A stretch of 32,336 nt of DNA from Candidatus Hermodarchaeum yapensis (GCA_016840405.1 JAEOSK010000026.1:1-32336), one strand, 5' to 3'; shown: positions 18,941 through 31,218, counted from the first letter of the stretch. Translations and numbers: made by a program. The notes: generated by a model not told the origin, from the sequence alone.

Positions 18941-19063
18941 GAAAACATGGTAGTTCACCCCATCTAATCGCACAACACCGGTTTTTCCGGATGAAACACC
19001 CAGACTCCAACCGCACATACCTTTCAAGGTATCCTCAGCGGGGTTACTCGGAAGAAAGGAATT
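18941..19063 (+). repeat. Family-2 intergenic repeat R1 (long)
   Basis: TGGTAGTTCACCCCATCTAATCGCACAACACCGGTTTTTCCGGATGAAACACCCAGACTCCAA...CTCGGAAGAAAGGAATT. Confidence 0.85.
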
Positions 19064-19072
19064 AGTCTAATT

Positions 19073-19465
19073 TTATGTGAAGTAATAGTAAATCGCTGAG
19101 AAATAGAAGATAATCAATACCAGAATCCAGAGGCCAAACAGCCATATACCATAGAATACTCCAGACTGTGCTGGCAAGAACATAAATGCTATCGCCACAA
19201 ATGGAAGAACCATTATCGCCGCCCAAAACGCGTTTTTAGCTGACTTAGTCAATATGAGCTGCATTCGCTCATCCGGTCGCCGCCGAATCGAAATGTATGC
19301 CCCAATCAATCCCCCAATAACTCCCGCAACCATAGCCGGAGCAAAACGCACCAACTCTGACACAATACTAATTGGCGTAATCAAATCCAACACAATGAAA
19401 AATATCGCTAAAACAACGAGTCCAATTGCATTCCCGACAATTGCTCTTTTCAACTCACGCTTCAC
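19073..19465 (-). CDS. Small membrane protein (DUF2178-like) coupled to an XRE regulator
   Basis: 4 TM helices, PDERMQLILTKSAKNAF; start GTG 19465 after GAGGGTGA, overlapping the HTH gene end (track 19510). Confidence 0.75.
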   Translation of the reverse strand: MKRELKRAIVGNAIGLVVLAIFFIVLDLITPISIVSELVRFAPAMVAGVIGGLIGAYISIRRRPDERMQLILTKSAKNAFWAAIMVLPFVAIAFMFLPAQSGVFYGIWLFGLWILVLIIFYFSAIYYYFT

Positions 19466-19706
19466 GCTTCTCACCCTCATAACTGAATAGATCCTCGATT
19501 GCCACACCAAATATTCGCGCTAACTTGAAAGCCAATTCCAACGAGGGGTTGTAGGTGCCCTTTTCAATGGCAATGATGGTCTGCCGACTCACATCCACGC
19601 GCTTAGCTAGCCCCTCCTGCGTCCAGTTCTCGGAATCTTGCCTCGTTCGCATCCGCTCTTCCCGCAGGCTTCGAAGCCGATTAGTTATCAACGATATACC
19701 ACTCAC
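19455..19706 (-). CDS. XRE (Cro/C1) HTH transcriptional regulator
   Basis: WTQEGLAKRVDVSRQTIIAIEKGTYNPSLELAFKLA. Confidence 0.93.
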   Translation of the reverse strand: MSGISLITNRLRSLREERMRTRQDSENWTQEGLAKRVDVSRQTIIAIEKGTYNPSLELAFKLARIFGVAIEDLFSYEGEKREA

Positions 19707-19712
19707 GCAGTA

Positions 19713-19748
19713 ATGTCAAGTCTACTTTACGTAAAGTCAACTTGACAT
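19713..19748. promoter_or_regulatory. 36-bp palindromic operator
   Basis: ATGTCAAGTCTACTTTAC|GTAAAGTCAACTTGACAT (16/18 symmetric), just upstream of the HTH start. Confidence 0.75.
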
Positions 19749-19813
19749 ATAAACGTTCTCCAAACCCACCAATGGCCCCTCCTAAACACCATGCACACAC
19801 AGGTTCGCACGCC

Positions 19814-20020
19814 TTATGTGAGGTCTTCGTCTTCGAAAGAGAACAACTCTCCAATAGGCCGCTCTAAGACCCGTGCAATCCGATGCGCGAGCCGTAACGA
19901 TGGGTTATACTTTCCTTTCTCCAGAAACAAAATGGTCTGCCGGGTCACTCCCACCATCGCCGCCAGCTGTTCTTGGGTCCATTCCCGCAGTTCACGGAAT
20001 TCCCGAATACGCGTCTTCAC
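19814..20020 (-). CDS. XRE (Cro/C1) HTH transcriptional regulator
   Basis: [32 protein letters not shown]. Confidence 0.93.
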
Positions 20021-20022
20021 CG

Positions 20023-28247: not shown

Positions 28248-28480
28248 CCGAAATCTTCCCTCCGCGTACTATTAAGTATGAACAACATTTTAACTGCTTT
28301 CGTAGAGCTGCATCGTGTGTTTTTTAGACTTTAATCCTCCAATCCTATACGCTCTCCGAACCACTCATTACTGATACGATAAACTATTACCACGGTTCAG
28401 ATGAACATAATACCTTCATCAATCCTTGAAGCTGAAGGAAAAAATTGCCTTGTTTTTAACAATCAACACAAGCGAAAGTT

Positions 28481-28506
28481 GAAAGAATAAAGTGGTCGTC
28501 CATCCC
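28481..28506 (+). repeat. Family-2 repeat R8 (partial)
   Basis: GAAAGAATAAAGTGGTCGTCCATCCC. Confidence 0.75.
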
Positions 28507-28548
28507 GACTCTAGCATATCTTCATAAAGAGAAACCTGGTAAAAATAG

Positions 28549-29427
28549 ATGACTTGTGGAACCCGAATTGCTTGGGGTGTTTTCATGGGAATTAATGTAG
28601 CTAAGCTTCGAGCAGAGTATGAGAAACCGCATTATCTCATTCCCACATCCGACGGCCAAATTCTATTTTTAAGTGCCTGGGAACCTTCCAAACCGTCAAA
28701 AACGGCACTCCTCATTTTTCATGGAATTACAGCGAATAGTGCCGTGTATAGCATGCTTGGAATCCCTGTGGCTGATGCGGGATTTTCGACCTTTGGCTTA
28801 GATTTACGGGGACATGGACTTTCTGATGGGAAACGTGGCGATTATCCCAGCAAGGCGAGACTCGTGGCGGATGTGTGTGAAACCATTAATTTCGTAAAAC
28901 AACAGGGATTCGAAGGAGTAGTTCTTTTGGGGCACAGTTTGGGAAACTTGGTTGCCTTAGAAGCGCTCAATGCATGTGATGAGCATGTTGCCGGATTGAT
29001 TTTGCTTAGCGTTGGGAGGACGGTTAATCCTGGTGCGTATCCAAAAATGTCAATGGGGCAGAAATTGAAAACAGTTGGGAAGCTTTTGTTTGCATACAAT
29101 CGTCCAGTTATTGAGTATAAGCGGGAAGGTATGATAGGATTAGATGATCCGTTATTTACATTCAAGTATACGCCCCGCTTCCTGCGAATCTTGGATGCCC
29201 AGAAATTTGCGAAACAATATCAGTTTCCAGACCACTTAGGGTTTCCCGTTTTTGCAGGAGTTGGGGAACATGATGAGATCTTTTCAGTCGAGACAACCCG
29301 GGCGTTTTTTGATGAGGTGCCCAGTGAGACTAAGGAATTTCAAGTCATTCCTGGAGCCAAGCATGCGGAATATCCCAAAGGGTGTTGGAACGGATTAATC
29401 GCGTGGTTGAAACAGCATTTTACGTAA
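28549..29427 (+). CDS. Alpha/beta hydrolase (lysophospholipase/monoglyceride lipase-like); start likely ATG 28585
   Basis: FHG, DLRGHGLSDGKRGD, GHSLG nucleophile motif, GEHD, GAKH. Confidence 0.92.
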   Translation: MTCGTRIAWGVFMGINVAKLRAEYEKPHYLIPTSDGQILFLSAWEPSKPSKTALLIFHGITANSAVYSMLGIPVADAGFSTFGLDLRGHGLSDGKRGDYPSKARLVADVCETINFVKQQGFEGVVLLGHSLGNLVALEALNACDEHVAGLILLSVGRTVNPGAYPKMSMGQKLKTVGKLLFAYNRPVIEYKREGMIGLDDPLFTFKYTPRFLRILDAQKFAKQYQFPDHLGFPVFAGVGEHDEIFSVETTRAFFDEVPSETKEFQVIPGAKHAEYPKGCWNGLIAWLKQHFT

Positions 29428-29451
29428 GCTTGTACTTTCCCATCGGAATTG

Positions 29452-31008
29452 CTACTGTGTGTTAGTTACGTACTGTTCGCGTAAGACTCGCTTAAGAATT
29501 TTACCTGATATGCTGCGTGGAAACTCATCAAGAATAAACACTTGGCGTATTCTTTGAAACTTTGCCCCCACCCTTTCATTCACCCATTGCACCAGTTCAT
29601 CAGGCGAAACCGTTTTAGGCTGCCTTAATGATACCGCAGCAACAGGCGTTTCTCCCCATTTTTTGTCAGGAATCCCAAAGACTGCAACCTCCTCCACTGC
29701 GGGATGTTGGGCGACTACCTCTTCGATATCTTTCGGATAGACGTTCACACCCCCTGAAATGATCATATCCTTTTTTCGGTCCACCAAATAGAGAAAGCCA
29801 TCCGCATCGACATAACCTAAATCTCCGGAATAAAGCCACCCCTCTTTGAAAGTCTCTGCCGTCAACTTGGGTCGTTTATAATACTCGGTCATCAATGTGG
29901 GACCGCGTCCCACGATTTCACCTATTTCACCCACCGGAGCATCTTCACCCGAATCATCCATAATACGGATTTGGAAAAACGGAGGTGGAATACCAACAGA
30001 TTGAGGTTTGCGTGCAAAATGGGTTTTATCTAGAATCGTGAGGAACCCTTCGGTGAGCCCATACAGCTCATAAAATCGATCCGGTAAGAGTTGACTGAGC
30101 TTCTCTTTAACCTCCATATGTAAGGGCGCGCCCACAGAGCAAATCATTTCTAAGGATTCCAAGGCCTTAACAGAAAAATTCGGAGCGTTTAAGATTGCTA
30201 TCAGTTGTGAGGGCACCATAATTACGTGGGTCGCCCTTTCCCGATGGACGGTTTCGATAAATTCTTCGGCAACAAATTTTGCTAATAAAATATAGGAGGC
30301 CCCCACCAGCATGGCAGGCATTAGGGTTACAAAGGCTCCATTGAACACAATGGACCCCGCATGAATGACCACACTTTCCGGTGTCATACGAAAACTCGAC
30401 GCAAATAAAGTAGCATAGAATGCCCGAACATAATGGGAGAGTACAATTCCCTTAGGTAACCCAGTAGTTCCACTACTGTAAATGATATTATAGGGATCAT
30501 TCTCGTCCACCGCCACGGCTTCCGGTTCTGCATCGCTGGCGGCTGCCTTGAGCGCATGATAATCACGGTACCCTTTCCTTGACGGCTGCTCTGTGAGAAT
30601 ATACCCCTCCGAAGCGACATTGGGCAATTCTGGTTTAATCGCATCAAAAACGTCAATAAACTGACCATTCGTTACAACCAGCTTCGCATCCGAATCAGTG
30701 ATGAGCGATTTCAATCCTGCACGCATGAGCAGCGGACTCAACGGCACAGCCACAGCACCCAATTTCGCTATCCCCCAATACAGTTCTAATAACTCCAAAC
30801 AATTCGGCAACACAATAGCAATCTTCTCTCCTTTACCAATCCCCAAACCACGCAACGCATTCGCAATCCGATCCACATTCTGATTAAATTCCCGAAATGT
30901 CAACCGTTCATCCTCGAAGACAATTCCCAAATGCTCCGGGCGACTCTGCACATTCCGCGTCAATAACATCCCAATATTAATCGGATGCACAACAGAACCT
31001 TGCGACAT
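29452..31008 (-). CDS. Acyl-CoA synthetase (AMP-forming)
   Basis: YSSGTTGLPKG, YGLTEG, SGDLG, DRKKDMIISGG. Confidence 0.95.
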   Translation of the reverse strand: MSQGSVVHPINIGMLLTRNVQSRPEHLGIVFEDERLTFREFNQNVDRIANALRGLGIGKGEKIAIVLPNCLELLELYWGIAKLGAVAVPLSPLLMRAGLKSLITDSDAKLVVTNGQFIDVFDAIKPELPNVASEGYILTEQPSRKGYRDYHALKAAASDAEPEAVAVDENDPYNIIYSSGTTGLPKGIVLSHYVRAFYATLFASSFRMTPESVVIHAGSIVFNGAFVTLMPAMLVGASYILLAKFVAEEFIETVHRERATHVIMVPSQLIAILNAPNFSVKALESLEMICSVGAPLHMEVKEKLSQLLPDRFYELYGLTEGFLTILDKTHFARKPQSVGIPPPFFQIRIMDDSGEDAPVGEIGEIVGRGPTLMTEYYKRPKLTAETFKEGWLYSGDLGYVDADGFLYLVDRKKDMIISGGVNVYPKDIEEVVAQHPAVEEVAVFGIPDKKWGETPVAAVSLRQPKTVSPDELVQWVNERVGAKFQRIRQVFILDEFPRSISGKILKRVLREQYVTNTQ

Positions 31009-31159
31009 ACTGCTTCACCAGTGAAAACACGCTTCATCAAAGATGACATCTCCACAGCTTTAAAACTGATTACTGGATGAAGCCCTTAATCCTCACTTGA
31101 ATCAAGCTAAACCTGAAAGAAATCCTCTGATTTTTTAACGCTCACTTAAACTGTGGCAA

Positions 31160-31218
31160 GAAAAAGAAAAGTGGTCGTCCACCCCAGCCAATCGTTACAA
31201 CACCGGTTTTTCCAGATT
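31160..31218 (+). repeat. Family-2 repeat R9 (closest to consensus)
   Basis: GAAAAAGAAAAGTGGTCGTCCACCCCAGCCAATCGTTACAACACCGGTTTTTCCAGATT. Confidence 0.88.

Follow-up and report, generated by a model that had tools for sequence, protein, structure and literature searches.

Copies of the 16S pre-rRNA 3' trailer partition a gene array in an Asgard archaeon and may be relics of serial trailer replacement

How does an archaeal chromosome come to carry a row of small, unrelated genes set apart by copies of a single repeat, all of them pointing the same way? The question is raised by a 32.3-kb contig of Candidatus Hermodarchaeum yapensis (GCA_016840405.1 JAEOSK010000026.1:1-32336; 32,336 nucleotides), which we call the window. 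It is the whole of contig C9 in an assembly of 2.7 Mb, 77 contigs and 86% completeness, referred to here as G000; other G numbers denote the compared genomes and L numbers the array loci. The organism belongs to the Asgard archaea, in a genus of the Thor/Hermod type, and matches to one of the cassette proteins come from metagenome-assembled genomes (MAGs) titled Promethearchaeota, Candidatus Thorarchaeota or "Hermod". An initial reading of the DNA by itself (hereafter the sequence-only reading) had described up to nine copies of a repeat, family 2, between positions 18,941 and 31,218, and had proposed that they divide 12 kb into cassettes captured site-specifically, in analogy to an integron. 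The answer favoured here, to which we give a rough probability of 0.55, is that the window holds the distal part, at least 12 kb long, of a cassette array whose anchor is the organism's one 16S rRNA gene, at its 3' end; that the repeats are displaced, decaying 16S trailers; and that the array grew by serial replacement of the trailer through homology-driven crossovers.

The nature of the repeat is revealed by its position elsewhere in the genome. Outside the window G000 holds only one copy (C71:495-621), directly downstream of the 3' end of its single 16S gene (C71:619-4212, minus strand; Rfam SSU_rRNA_archaea). Because this sole other copy abuts the 16S 3' end, the family-2 repeat is the 3' trailer of the 16S precursor rRNA (pre-rRNA), which runs for about 130 nt from the mature 3' end to the oligo-T terminator. 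Long copies in related genomes begin 3-16 nt inside the 16S gene, and R4 of the window about 20 nt inside it. According to RNAcofold, the conserved trailer blocks GGGUGUAU, CGGAAA, GGUGUUG, GUUG and GGUGGACG pair with the 5' leader, which makes the trailer one strand of the pre-rRNA processing helix, and the terminal GGUGGACGACCA with its U-run is predicted to be the helix base plus terminator. Read on the 16S-sense strand, each copy terminates in a small hairpin and oligo-T; RNAalifold on 34 long copies gave only this terminal 5-bp hairpin. Rfam and ARAGORN detected no RNA gene anywhere in the window. The earlier remark that the minus strand looks like a transcript 3' end with its terminator was thus apt, the transcript being the 16S pre-rRNA. 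The repeats, which the sequence-only reading had noted to lack attC boxes, are conserved-sequence relics of a functional RNA flank and not structured sites of the attC kind. It had also asked whether the best copy would lie beside the 3' end of an RNA or protein gene and a recombinase; the former is the case with 16S on C71, and no recombinase stands beside it.

Some further features of the rRNA genes may be recorded here. The 23S 3' trailer of G000 (C60, about 2320-2390) ends in GCGACCACCACTTTCTTTTTC, much like the 16S trailer end GGACGACCAC plus T-run, and this likeness points to a common rRNA 3'-end signal. The 16S gene of G000 spans 3.6 kb against a 1.48-kb model and contains three intron-like insertions, each with a LAGLIDADG open reading frame (ORF; Table 1); the intron content differs between G000 and G007. 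The loop of the final helix contains a short insertion, some 27 nt before the 3' end; at this place the genes of G014 and G007 are about 58 nt longer.

With a profile built from the copies of the sequence-only reading, nhmmer recovers six strong plus-strand copies in the window, R1 to R5 and R9 (E 1e-10 to 1e-16), the match at R4 covering 22344-22474. The original consensus is likewise a plus-strand reading, the trailer sense of the window copies being the minus strand. Beyond these six, the list of nine survives in part: R8 is a core-only copy and R6 a short relic with positional support, while R7 is doubtful and is missed by the nhmmer profile even with filters off. A tenth relic, R1b, has to be added; it lies below the nhmmer threshold, is orthologous to a copy in G005, the closest relative of G000, and divides the first interval into two. 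R6 alone also falls below the profile threshold, and in G001 and G007 a full copy occupies the right end of this cassette. The copies are indeed co-oriented and intergenic, with a shared left edge and a variable right extent. R1 adjoins a conserved nuo-like operon, and the array has the same distal border in G004 and G006. Past R5, from about position 23840, the DNA is the promoter of the next gene, and the block that starts at 31161, at R9, is 95% identical to G005, where the luciferase cassette precedes it. The palindrome AACACCGGTGTT ascribed to the motif is perfect in R5 only; the other copies have ACCGGT with imperfect arms. As for the core, its 12-mer TGGTCGTCCACC has two exact matches in the genome, both in this array or at 16S; with one mismatch allowed there are 18 against 12 expected, which is near chance. 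The cores of R3, R4 and R7 are mutated.

The arrangement is not peculiar to one genome. An iterated profile found 89 copies at 23 loci in about 14 species of the genus, and within each of the 23 loci all copies lie on one strand. Nearly all (83 of 89) start at model positions 1-10, the remaining six lacking the core. Arrays adjoin the 16S 3' end in three genomes, namely G014, G007 and G016, the last a member of a second genus; at locus L015 of G001 the last copy does not abut 16S. The trailer of G016 differs in sequence from that of the first genus except in the core, and downstream of 16S stand three more co-oriented copies of this organism's own trailer. Their identity to the working trailer drops with distance from 16S, from 90.7% through 84% to 75.5%, and the nearest contains the last 7 nt of 16S. 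The youngest G016 cassette is uninformative on capture: its second gene has paralogues outside the arrays with no trailer nearby. Among eight genomes of other Asgard families, seven have no extra copy and one (G029) has a single copy, and a general Asgard property was therefore rejected. In G029, a closed 2.8-Mb genome, the last 25 nt of 16S and 68 nt of trailer recur once (L049, C1 about 451050-452130), 977 nt downstream, co-oriented and at 75% identity, which may be a minimal version of the same process.

Between the repeats, where each interval has from one to a few genes, the gene content moves in modules. Of the between-species blocks of at least 300 bp, 108 of 109 keep their orientation relative to the repeats, and 12 of the 26 locus pairs with two or more blocks each are non-colinear; in G001 and G007 the order of three modules is cleanly reversed. 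Cassettes, in other words, change order but do not flip. Deletion alone is insufficient to account for order changes with orientation kept, and random transposition would not preserve orientation. The window itself offers several cases. Part of cassette 1a (19827-20454) recurs at 87% identity in G005 at another array position (L022 4443-3816), and cassette 1b matches the same genome at 86% (L021 7325-6437) up to the left edge of R2, where the match stops. The c2 module (21543-22005) is present in nine genomes with differing neighbours, its homology running from the stop codon into the first ~25 nt of the next repeat. Block 22018-22475, with cassette 3, is common to G000 and G005; cassette 4 is 92% identical to G005 and 91% to G011; and c4 is common to G001 and G007, the shared stretch ending 11-13 nt inside the next repeat. 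Shared-block ends are six-fold enriched in and around repeats, and the left ends are spread across the whole repeat. The claim that the repeats partition the region into modules therefore holds, since relatives have the same modules with other neighbours and in other orders, and neither of the outcomes that had been named as contrary to it, a genome-wide spread like that of a miniature inverted-repeat transposable element (MITE) or an invariant gene order, was seen.

The trailers themselves have changed over time. Hairpin 1 is intact in 18 of the 34 long copies, with many compensatory stem variants, and is broken or absent in the other 16, which include R1 (where it is broken), R5 and R9; the pattern fits relics of trailers that once worked. 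The genus has two trailer types, each of which is the working trailer in some species. R1 matches G014's and G007's working trailers at 79% identity and that of its own genome at 70%, and the sequences nearest to the working trailer of G000 are internal copies in other species. Where G000 and G005 have orthologous copies, these are conserved to no greater degree than the DNA around them. This exchange of trailer types and the gradient in G016 form the pattern expected if working trailers were replaced again and again and their predecessors displaced, and sequence comparison thus supports a turnover in which new trailers went into service and old ones moved away.

What makes the crossovers? On the array contigs of the 15 genomes of the genus there is no tyrosine recombinase (PF00589), and each genome has one XerA-like gene, on an unrelated contig (in G000 on C16, 314 aa). 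When all genes of the window and the 16S contig were scanned with Pfam, no tyrosine-recombinase gene of the intI type was found, nor does any recombinase family recur among the 99 largest array ORFs, the arrays holding about 150 ORFs in about 90 intervals. A serine recombinase, a reverse transcriptase and a Y1 transposase (TnpA) were each searched for in G000, at its 86% completeness, and not detected. Cas1 gave no match over the cut-off in the 15 genomes, and TnpB none on the array contigs of relatives; with no Y1 TnpA either, Cas1 plus TnpB was rejected as a driver in this genus. G000 does have TnpB-only elements in large number: PF07282, the TnpB zinc-finger domain, matches 32 times, in several cases with internal stops. 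A dif-like site consists of two 11-bp inverted arms around a 6-bp spacer (PMC2958812), and a repeat search found no such 11-6-11 dyad at the core or at the ACCGGT palindrome; the only long dyad in the repeat is hairpin 1 of the trailer, which is absent from many truncated copies.

One event could be mapped. In R4, sequences of two copies of G005, Ra and Rb, are joined into a hybrid; between these two copies G005 has an additional module of 983 bp. The change from one to the other falls close to the 16S-proximal end of the repeat, outside the conserved core, and one parent copy has no core at all, which argues for a homologous and not a core-specific crossover. Where G000 and G005 differ behind the luciferase cassette, the junction revealed neither a clear microhomology nor a clear site. 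Of the integron-analogous gene-capture array envisaged by the sequence-only reading, gene capture is supported by the shuffled modules; the integron-like, site-specific part is not, given that no recombinase was found in or beside the arrays and that the crossover at R4 looks homologous.

A 419-aa protein with no Pfam or PADLOC family is encoded in the cassette adjoining the working 16S trailer in G000 and G007; it occurs in two of the 15 genomes of the genus, and G016 has a distantly related protein. A D...ECK motif lies in the C-terminal half of the 419-aa protein, for which Atlas gives weak leads to nucleases of the PD-(D/E)XK or Mrr type (scores <0.9, TM <0.5). A small CxxC...CxxC zinc-ribbon ORF lies in the window (13995-14142, minus strand), just downstream of a TnpB gene, with homologues inside the arrays of G014 (16S-adjacent cassette), G006 and G005. 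A TnpB guide-RNA scaffold was considered for this stretch and rejected, as it reads as a zinc-ribbon ORF.

Taken together, these data favour homology-driven crossovers because of the hybrid R4, the scattered left ends, the failure to find a recombinase and the lack of a dif-type dyad. The array would have grown as follows. Recombination at the 16S 3' end or trailer would bring in DNA with a complete trailer of its own and its cargo, and the incoming trailer would take over the service of the 16S gene. The old trailer, whole or shortened on its 16S side, would move downstream with the older cargo and be free to decay. Crossovers between co-oriented copies would then delete or re-insert cassettes, and order would change at constant orientation. 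The 16S gene and any trailer copy would supply the homology, and the crossovers are probably the work of general homologous recombination and double-strand-break repair machinery and not of a dedicated site-specific recombinase. The LAGLIDADG enzymes of the 16S introns are a plausible source of breaks.

Several points weigh against this explanation. The array on C9 and the 16S contig C71 are not physically linked in the assembly, and all compared genomes are MAGs of 72-91% completeness, in which a recombinase gene may have been missed. The 23S and 5S trailers of G000 have no extra copies. Repetition as a general property of rRNA 3' flanks was rejected on this ground, and a generic homology-anchor effect should not single out 16S. 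The right ends of shared blocks are concentrated in the repeat's core or at its left edge (positions -20 to +29), and many short copies (27-45 nt) consist of a near-perfect core followed by unrelated DNA. A common edge of this kind is a site-like feature, yet selection for an intact working trailer would give the same edge. Finally, the explanation does not account for the initial joining of wholly new genes to a trailer.

Some of these observations are also what a site-specific mechanism would draw upon, and it is the alternative that survives best, although we hold it to be rather unlikely. An XerA-like or unrecognised trans-acting recombinase would join circular cassettes at a core of about 25 nt (an A-tract plus GTGGTCGTCCACCCC), the rest of the trailer hitch-hiking. 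The clustered right ends, the near-perfect cores of short copies and the sparing of 23S and 5S would all find a reason, and so would a core that nearly every copy retains, that two genera with otherwise different trailers have in common, and next to which modules keep their orientation despite being reordered. However, no recombinase lies in or beside any array, and a recombinase-type dyad is missing from the core. That working trailers conserve the core is explained by its role as helix base and terminator, the 23S trailer having a similar end (GACCAC plus T-run). In addition, the one mapped event is far from the core and involves a copy without it, the six coreless copies exist at all, and the break points past the core are not fixed but range over positions 27-41. 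In its strongest form, a dedicated gene-capture system of this Asgard order with the trailer core as attachment site, an unrecognised recombinase acting in trans and the function of an archaeal integron, the idea is possible but doubtful.

Could the internal copies have been kept for a function of their own, one per cassette, as terminators or insulators against read-through from 16S or between cassettes, or as decoys for processing factors? The terminal hairpin and oligo-T of every copy are suggestive, and R1, R2, R6 and R7 lie directly downstream of minus-strand genes. R3, R4, R5, R8 and R9, on the other hand, follow no minus-strand gene, and the ORFs of 22 array loci are spread over both strands without bias (79 to 73). 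The copies also decay, as the loss of hairpin 1 in 16 of 34 and the mutated cores of R3, R4 and R7 attest, and the G000/G005 orthologues have been conserved no better than their flanks; we regard such a function as improbable. An origin through RNA is more improbable still. A common RNA 3' end with variable 5' truncation is the pattern of target-primed reverse transcription, here of released 3' trailers, and the longest copies stop 3-20 nt inside 16S, but no reverse transcriptase was found in the 86% complete G000, copies are limited to one locus and one strand, and the cargo between them is not derived from rRNA. The least credible proposal, a MITE-like non-autonomous transposon or the end of one of the genome's abundant TnpB elements, has in its favour a TnpB gene 4 kb from R1 and, within the R1 core, the exact 10-mer GGTAGTTCAC with which the IS200/IS605-type elements of G000 terminate on the right, and fails because copies occur only at this locus and at 16S, in strictly one orientation per locus, with neither terminal inverted repeats nor target-site duplications, with no Y1 transposase and no TnpB match on the array contigs of relatives, and because the exact 10-mer is confined to R1, the consensus differing at 2 of 10 positions. 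In R1, whose core reads ATGGTAGTTCACC, the 10-mer occupies 18949-18958; it is found again at 14182-14191, the right end of the TnpB element, and has 19 occurrences genome-wide in all, most of them after the terminal hairpin of an IS200/IS605-type right end, and its presence in R1 may be due to chance or conversion.

Coordinates of the trailer copies, the cassettes and the genes mentioned above are collected in Table 1. Beyond the truncated gene of cassette 9, the array does not end in related DNA, as locus L022 of G005 has at least four more repeats after the corresponding c5 gene. Across the arrays, units are as small as 270-550 bp, and S-adenosylmethionine (SAM) methyltransferases (12) are the commonest cargo among 99 ORFs, together with FAD oxidoreductases, ferredoxins and PEMT.

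Table 1. Trailer copies, cassettes and associated genes. Positions are in the window unless a locus is given.
Feature	Position	Strand	Basis
R1, distal-most trailer copy, near full length, type B	18939..19064	-	nhmmer E 1e-25
R1b, decayed relic, not in the sequence-only reading	20486..20540	-	aligns with G005 copy L021 7344-7296 (by eye and blast offset)
R2, trailer copy	21407..21546	-	nhmmer E 1e-12 to 1e-19
R3, trailer copy, partly decayed	22005..22092	-	nhmmer E 3e-12
R4, full trailer copy plus ~20 nt of 16S 3' end	22344..22480	-	alignment to C71 trailer and 16S end
R5, trailer copy, truncated at ~position 55, perfect palindrome	23780..23840	-	nhmmer E 5e-14
R6, core-only relic	24803..24835	-	repeat family D2; positional orthologue of full copies L015:18877 and L017:30
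R7, doubtful relic	26927..26960	-	position only: left of c13, like copy left of c13 in G013 L030
R8, short core-only copy	28481..28512	-	repeat family D2; nhmmer --max E 0.004
R9, trailer copy, perfect core, truncated at ~position 55	31163..31220	-	nhmmer E 1e-15
Cassette 1a: 145-aa ORF (-), HTH_3 regulator 19455-19706 (-), DUF3796 protein 20023-20382 (-)	19073..20440	-	Pfam
Cassette 1b: creatininase-family amidohydrolase	20669..21397	+	Pfam PF02633, E 7e-28
Cassette 2 (c2): 125-aa membrane protein, no Pfam family	21534..21911	-	
Cassette 3: 66-aa zinc-ribbon protein	22127..22327	+	weak zinc-ribbon Pfam matches
Cassette 4: luciferase-like monooxygenase (22553-23518) and 60-aa ORF	22553..23778	+	Pfam PF00296, E 1e-53
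Cassette 5 (c4): flavodoxin-like / 2x[4Fe-4S] protein	23888..24778	+	Pfam
Cassette 6: 457-aa membrane protein (-), 129-aa ORF (+)	25021..26877	-/+	no confident Pfam family
Cassette 7 (c13): 380-aa protein, no Pfam family	27105..28247	-	75% identical to G013 L030 1383-2541
Cassette 8: alpha/beta hydrolase (+), AMP-binding acyl-CoA synthetase-like enzyme (-)	28549..31008	+/-	Pfam
Cassette 9 (c5): major facilitator superfamily (MFS) transporter, cut by contig end	31342..32336	+	Pfam
LAGLIDADG ORFs in 16S introns	L001 (G000:C71) 3573-4046, 2252-2887, 1319-1903		
419-aa protein gene	L001 (G000:C71) 1-471	+	
419-aa protein gene	L016 (G007:C48) 1603-2862	-	

The window contains a second repeat, family 1, which had been taken for an independent array, and rightly in so far as this repeat is a different one and is clustered mainly on another contig. 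Its copies are about 100-180 nt long, three lying in the window (2298-2475, 6340-6508 and 9638-9815) and about 15 more on contig C58 of G000 (4.8-55 kb), all but one of these on one strand. That family 1 might be the flank of another RNA gene was rejected, since Rfam gave no RNA match within the first 80 kb of C58.

Where, then, does growth by serial trailer replacement stand among known systems? Integron attC sites are sequence-variable imperfect inverted repeats with R''/L''-L'/R' boxes and a GTTRRRY core, and integrons have reportedly been described in Archaea by Ghaly et al. in 2022. As in integrons, including sedentary chromosomal ones and clusters of attC sites lacking an integrase (CALINs), small accessory-gene cassettes, with or without a promoter, sit at a single locus between co-oriented, recombination-prone repeats, and relatives have cassettes in common in a different order. 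Unlike integrons, the arrays have no intI and no attI/attC architecture, their repeats are conserved in sequence and descend from the flank of a functional RNA, cassette genes favour neither strand, and the mapped crossover looks homologous. In staphylococci, composite islands of the staphylococcal cassette chromosome (SCC) arise by serial insertion at the 3' end of rlmH (orfX), with short direct repeats of the target between units; they depend on Ccr serine recombinases that some units carry and others lack. Serial insertion at the 3' end of one conserved gene and target repeats between units are likenesses to SCC, from which the present case differs in that no serine recombinase was detected in G000. 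Modules that depend on Xer (integrative mobile elements exploiting Xer, IMEX, or pdif-type) have a dif-like dyad, of which there is none at the core or the ACCGGT palindrome of the repeat.

Closer parallels are found in queues of islands at the 3' ends of tRNA and tmRNA genes, such as the tycheposons of Prochlorococcus, which are said to be tandem integrative elements lined up there. Here too the direct repeats between insertions are partial copies of an RNA-gene 3' end, an intact copy stands beside the gene, and what the displaced copies have in common is their gene-distal end. Such islands, however, have integrases of their own, at least when fresh, whereas the present arrays have no recurrent recombinase family; the units, moreover, can be very small, and the target is an rRNA trailer. 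In the WHO elements at the FBA1 gene of Torulaspora and Lachancea yeasts, each arrival takes the place of the gene's 3' end and displaces the old fragment downstream (Coughlan et al., 2020; PMC7282813). The clusters consist of co-oriented 3' fragments with cargo between them, the newest beside the gene; a downstream fragment serves as homology for repair, and the working FBA1 3' end evolves discordantly from the gene body (PMC7282813). The 16S trailer appears in the same way to have been replaced repeatedly and the old ones displaced, judging from the gradient in G016 and the swapping of trailer types between working and internal positions. In contrast to WHO, the target is a non-coding rRNA trailer in an archaeon, and units in general carry ordinary accessory genes without a nuclease gene of their own, the 16S-proximal 419-aa protein having weak nuclease leads; the intron LAGLIDADG enzymes are a candidate source of breaks, if any. 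The arrays are best classed with cases in which insertions accumulate serially at the 3' end of a conserved RNA gene; their consequences resemble those of integrons, but they have no integron parts. A full-text literature search, with most subscription journals outside its coverage, returned no description of such 16S-trailer cassette arrays.

If the explanation favoured here is right, the tail of the 16S rRNA would be a landing pad for gene exchange without a recognisable integrase, and the 3' flank of the cell's most conserved gene would serve, in a lineage near the ancestry of eukaryotes, as a rapidly changing reservoir of accessory genes, among them methyltransferases, oxidoreductases, ferredoxins, hydrolases and transporters. 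Should a dedicated recombinase prove to be at work instead, the arrays would be a new class of cassette platform. For those who work with MAGs, contigs next to 16S would be hot spots of strain variation and of assembly breaks. The trailer relics would provide a natural marker for the order of past acquisitions, and the array a testable route by which genes flow between Asgard species without a plasmid, virus or integrase.

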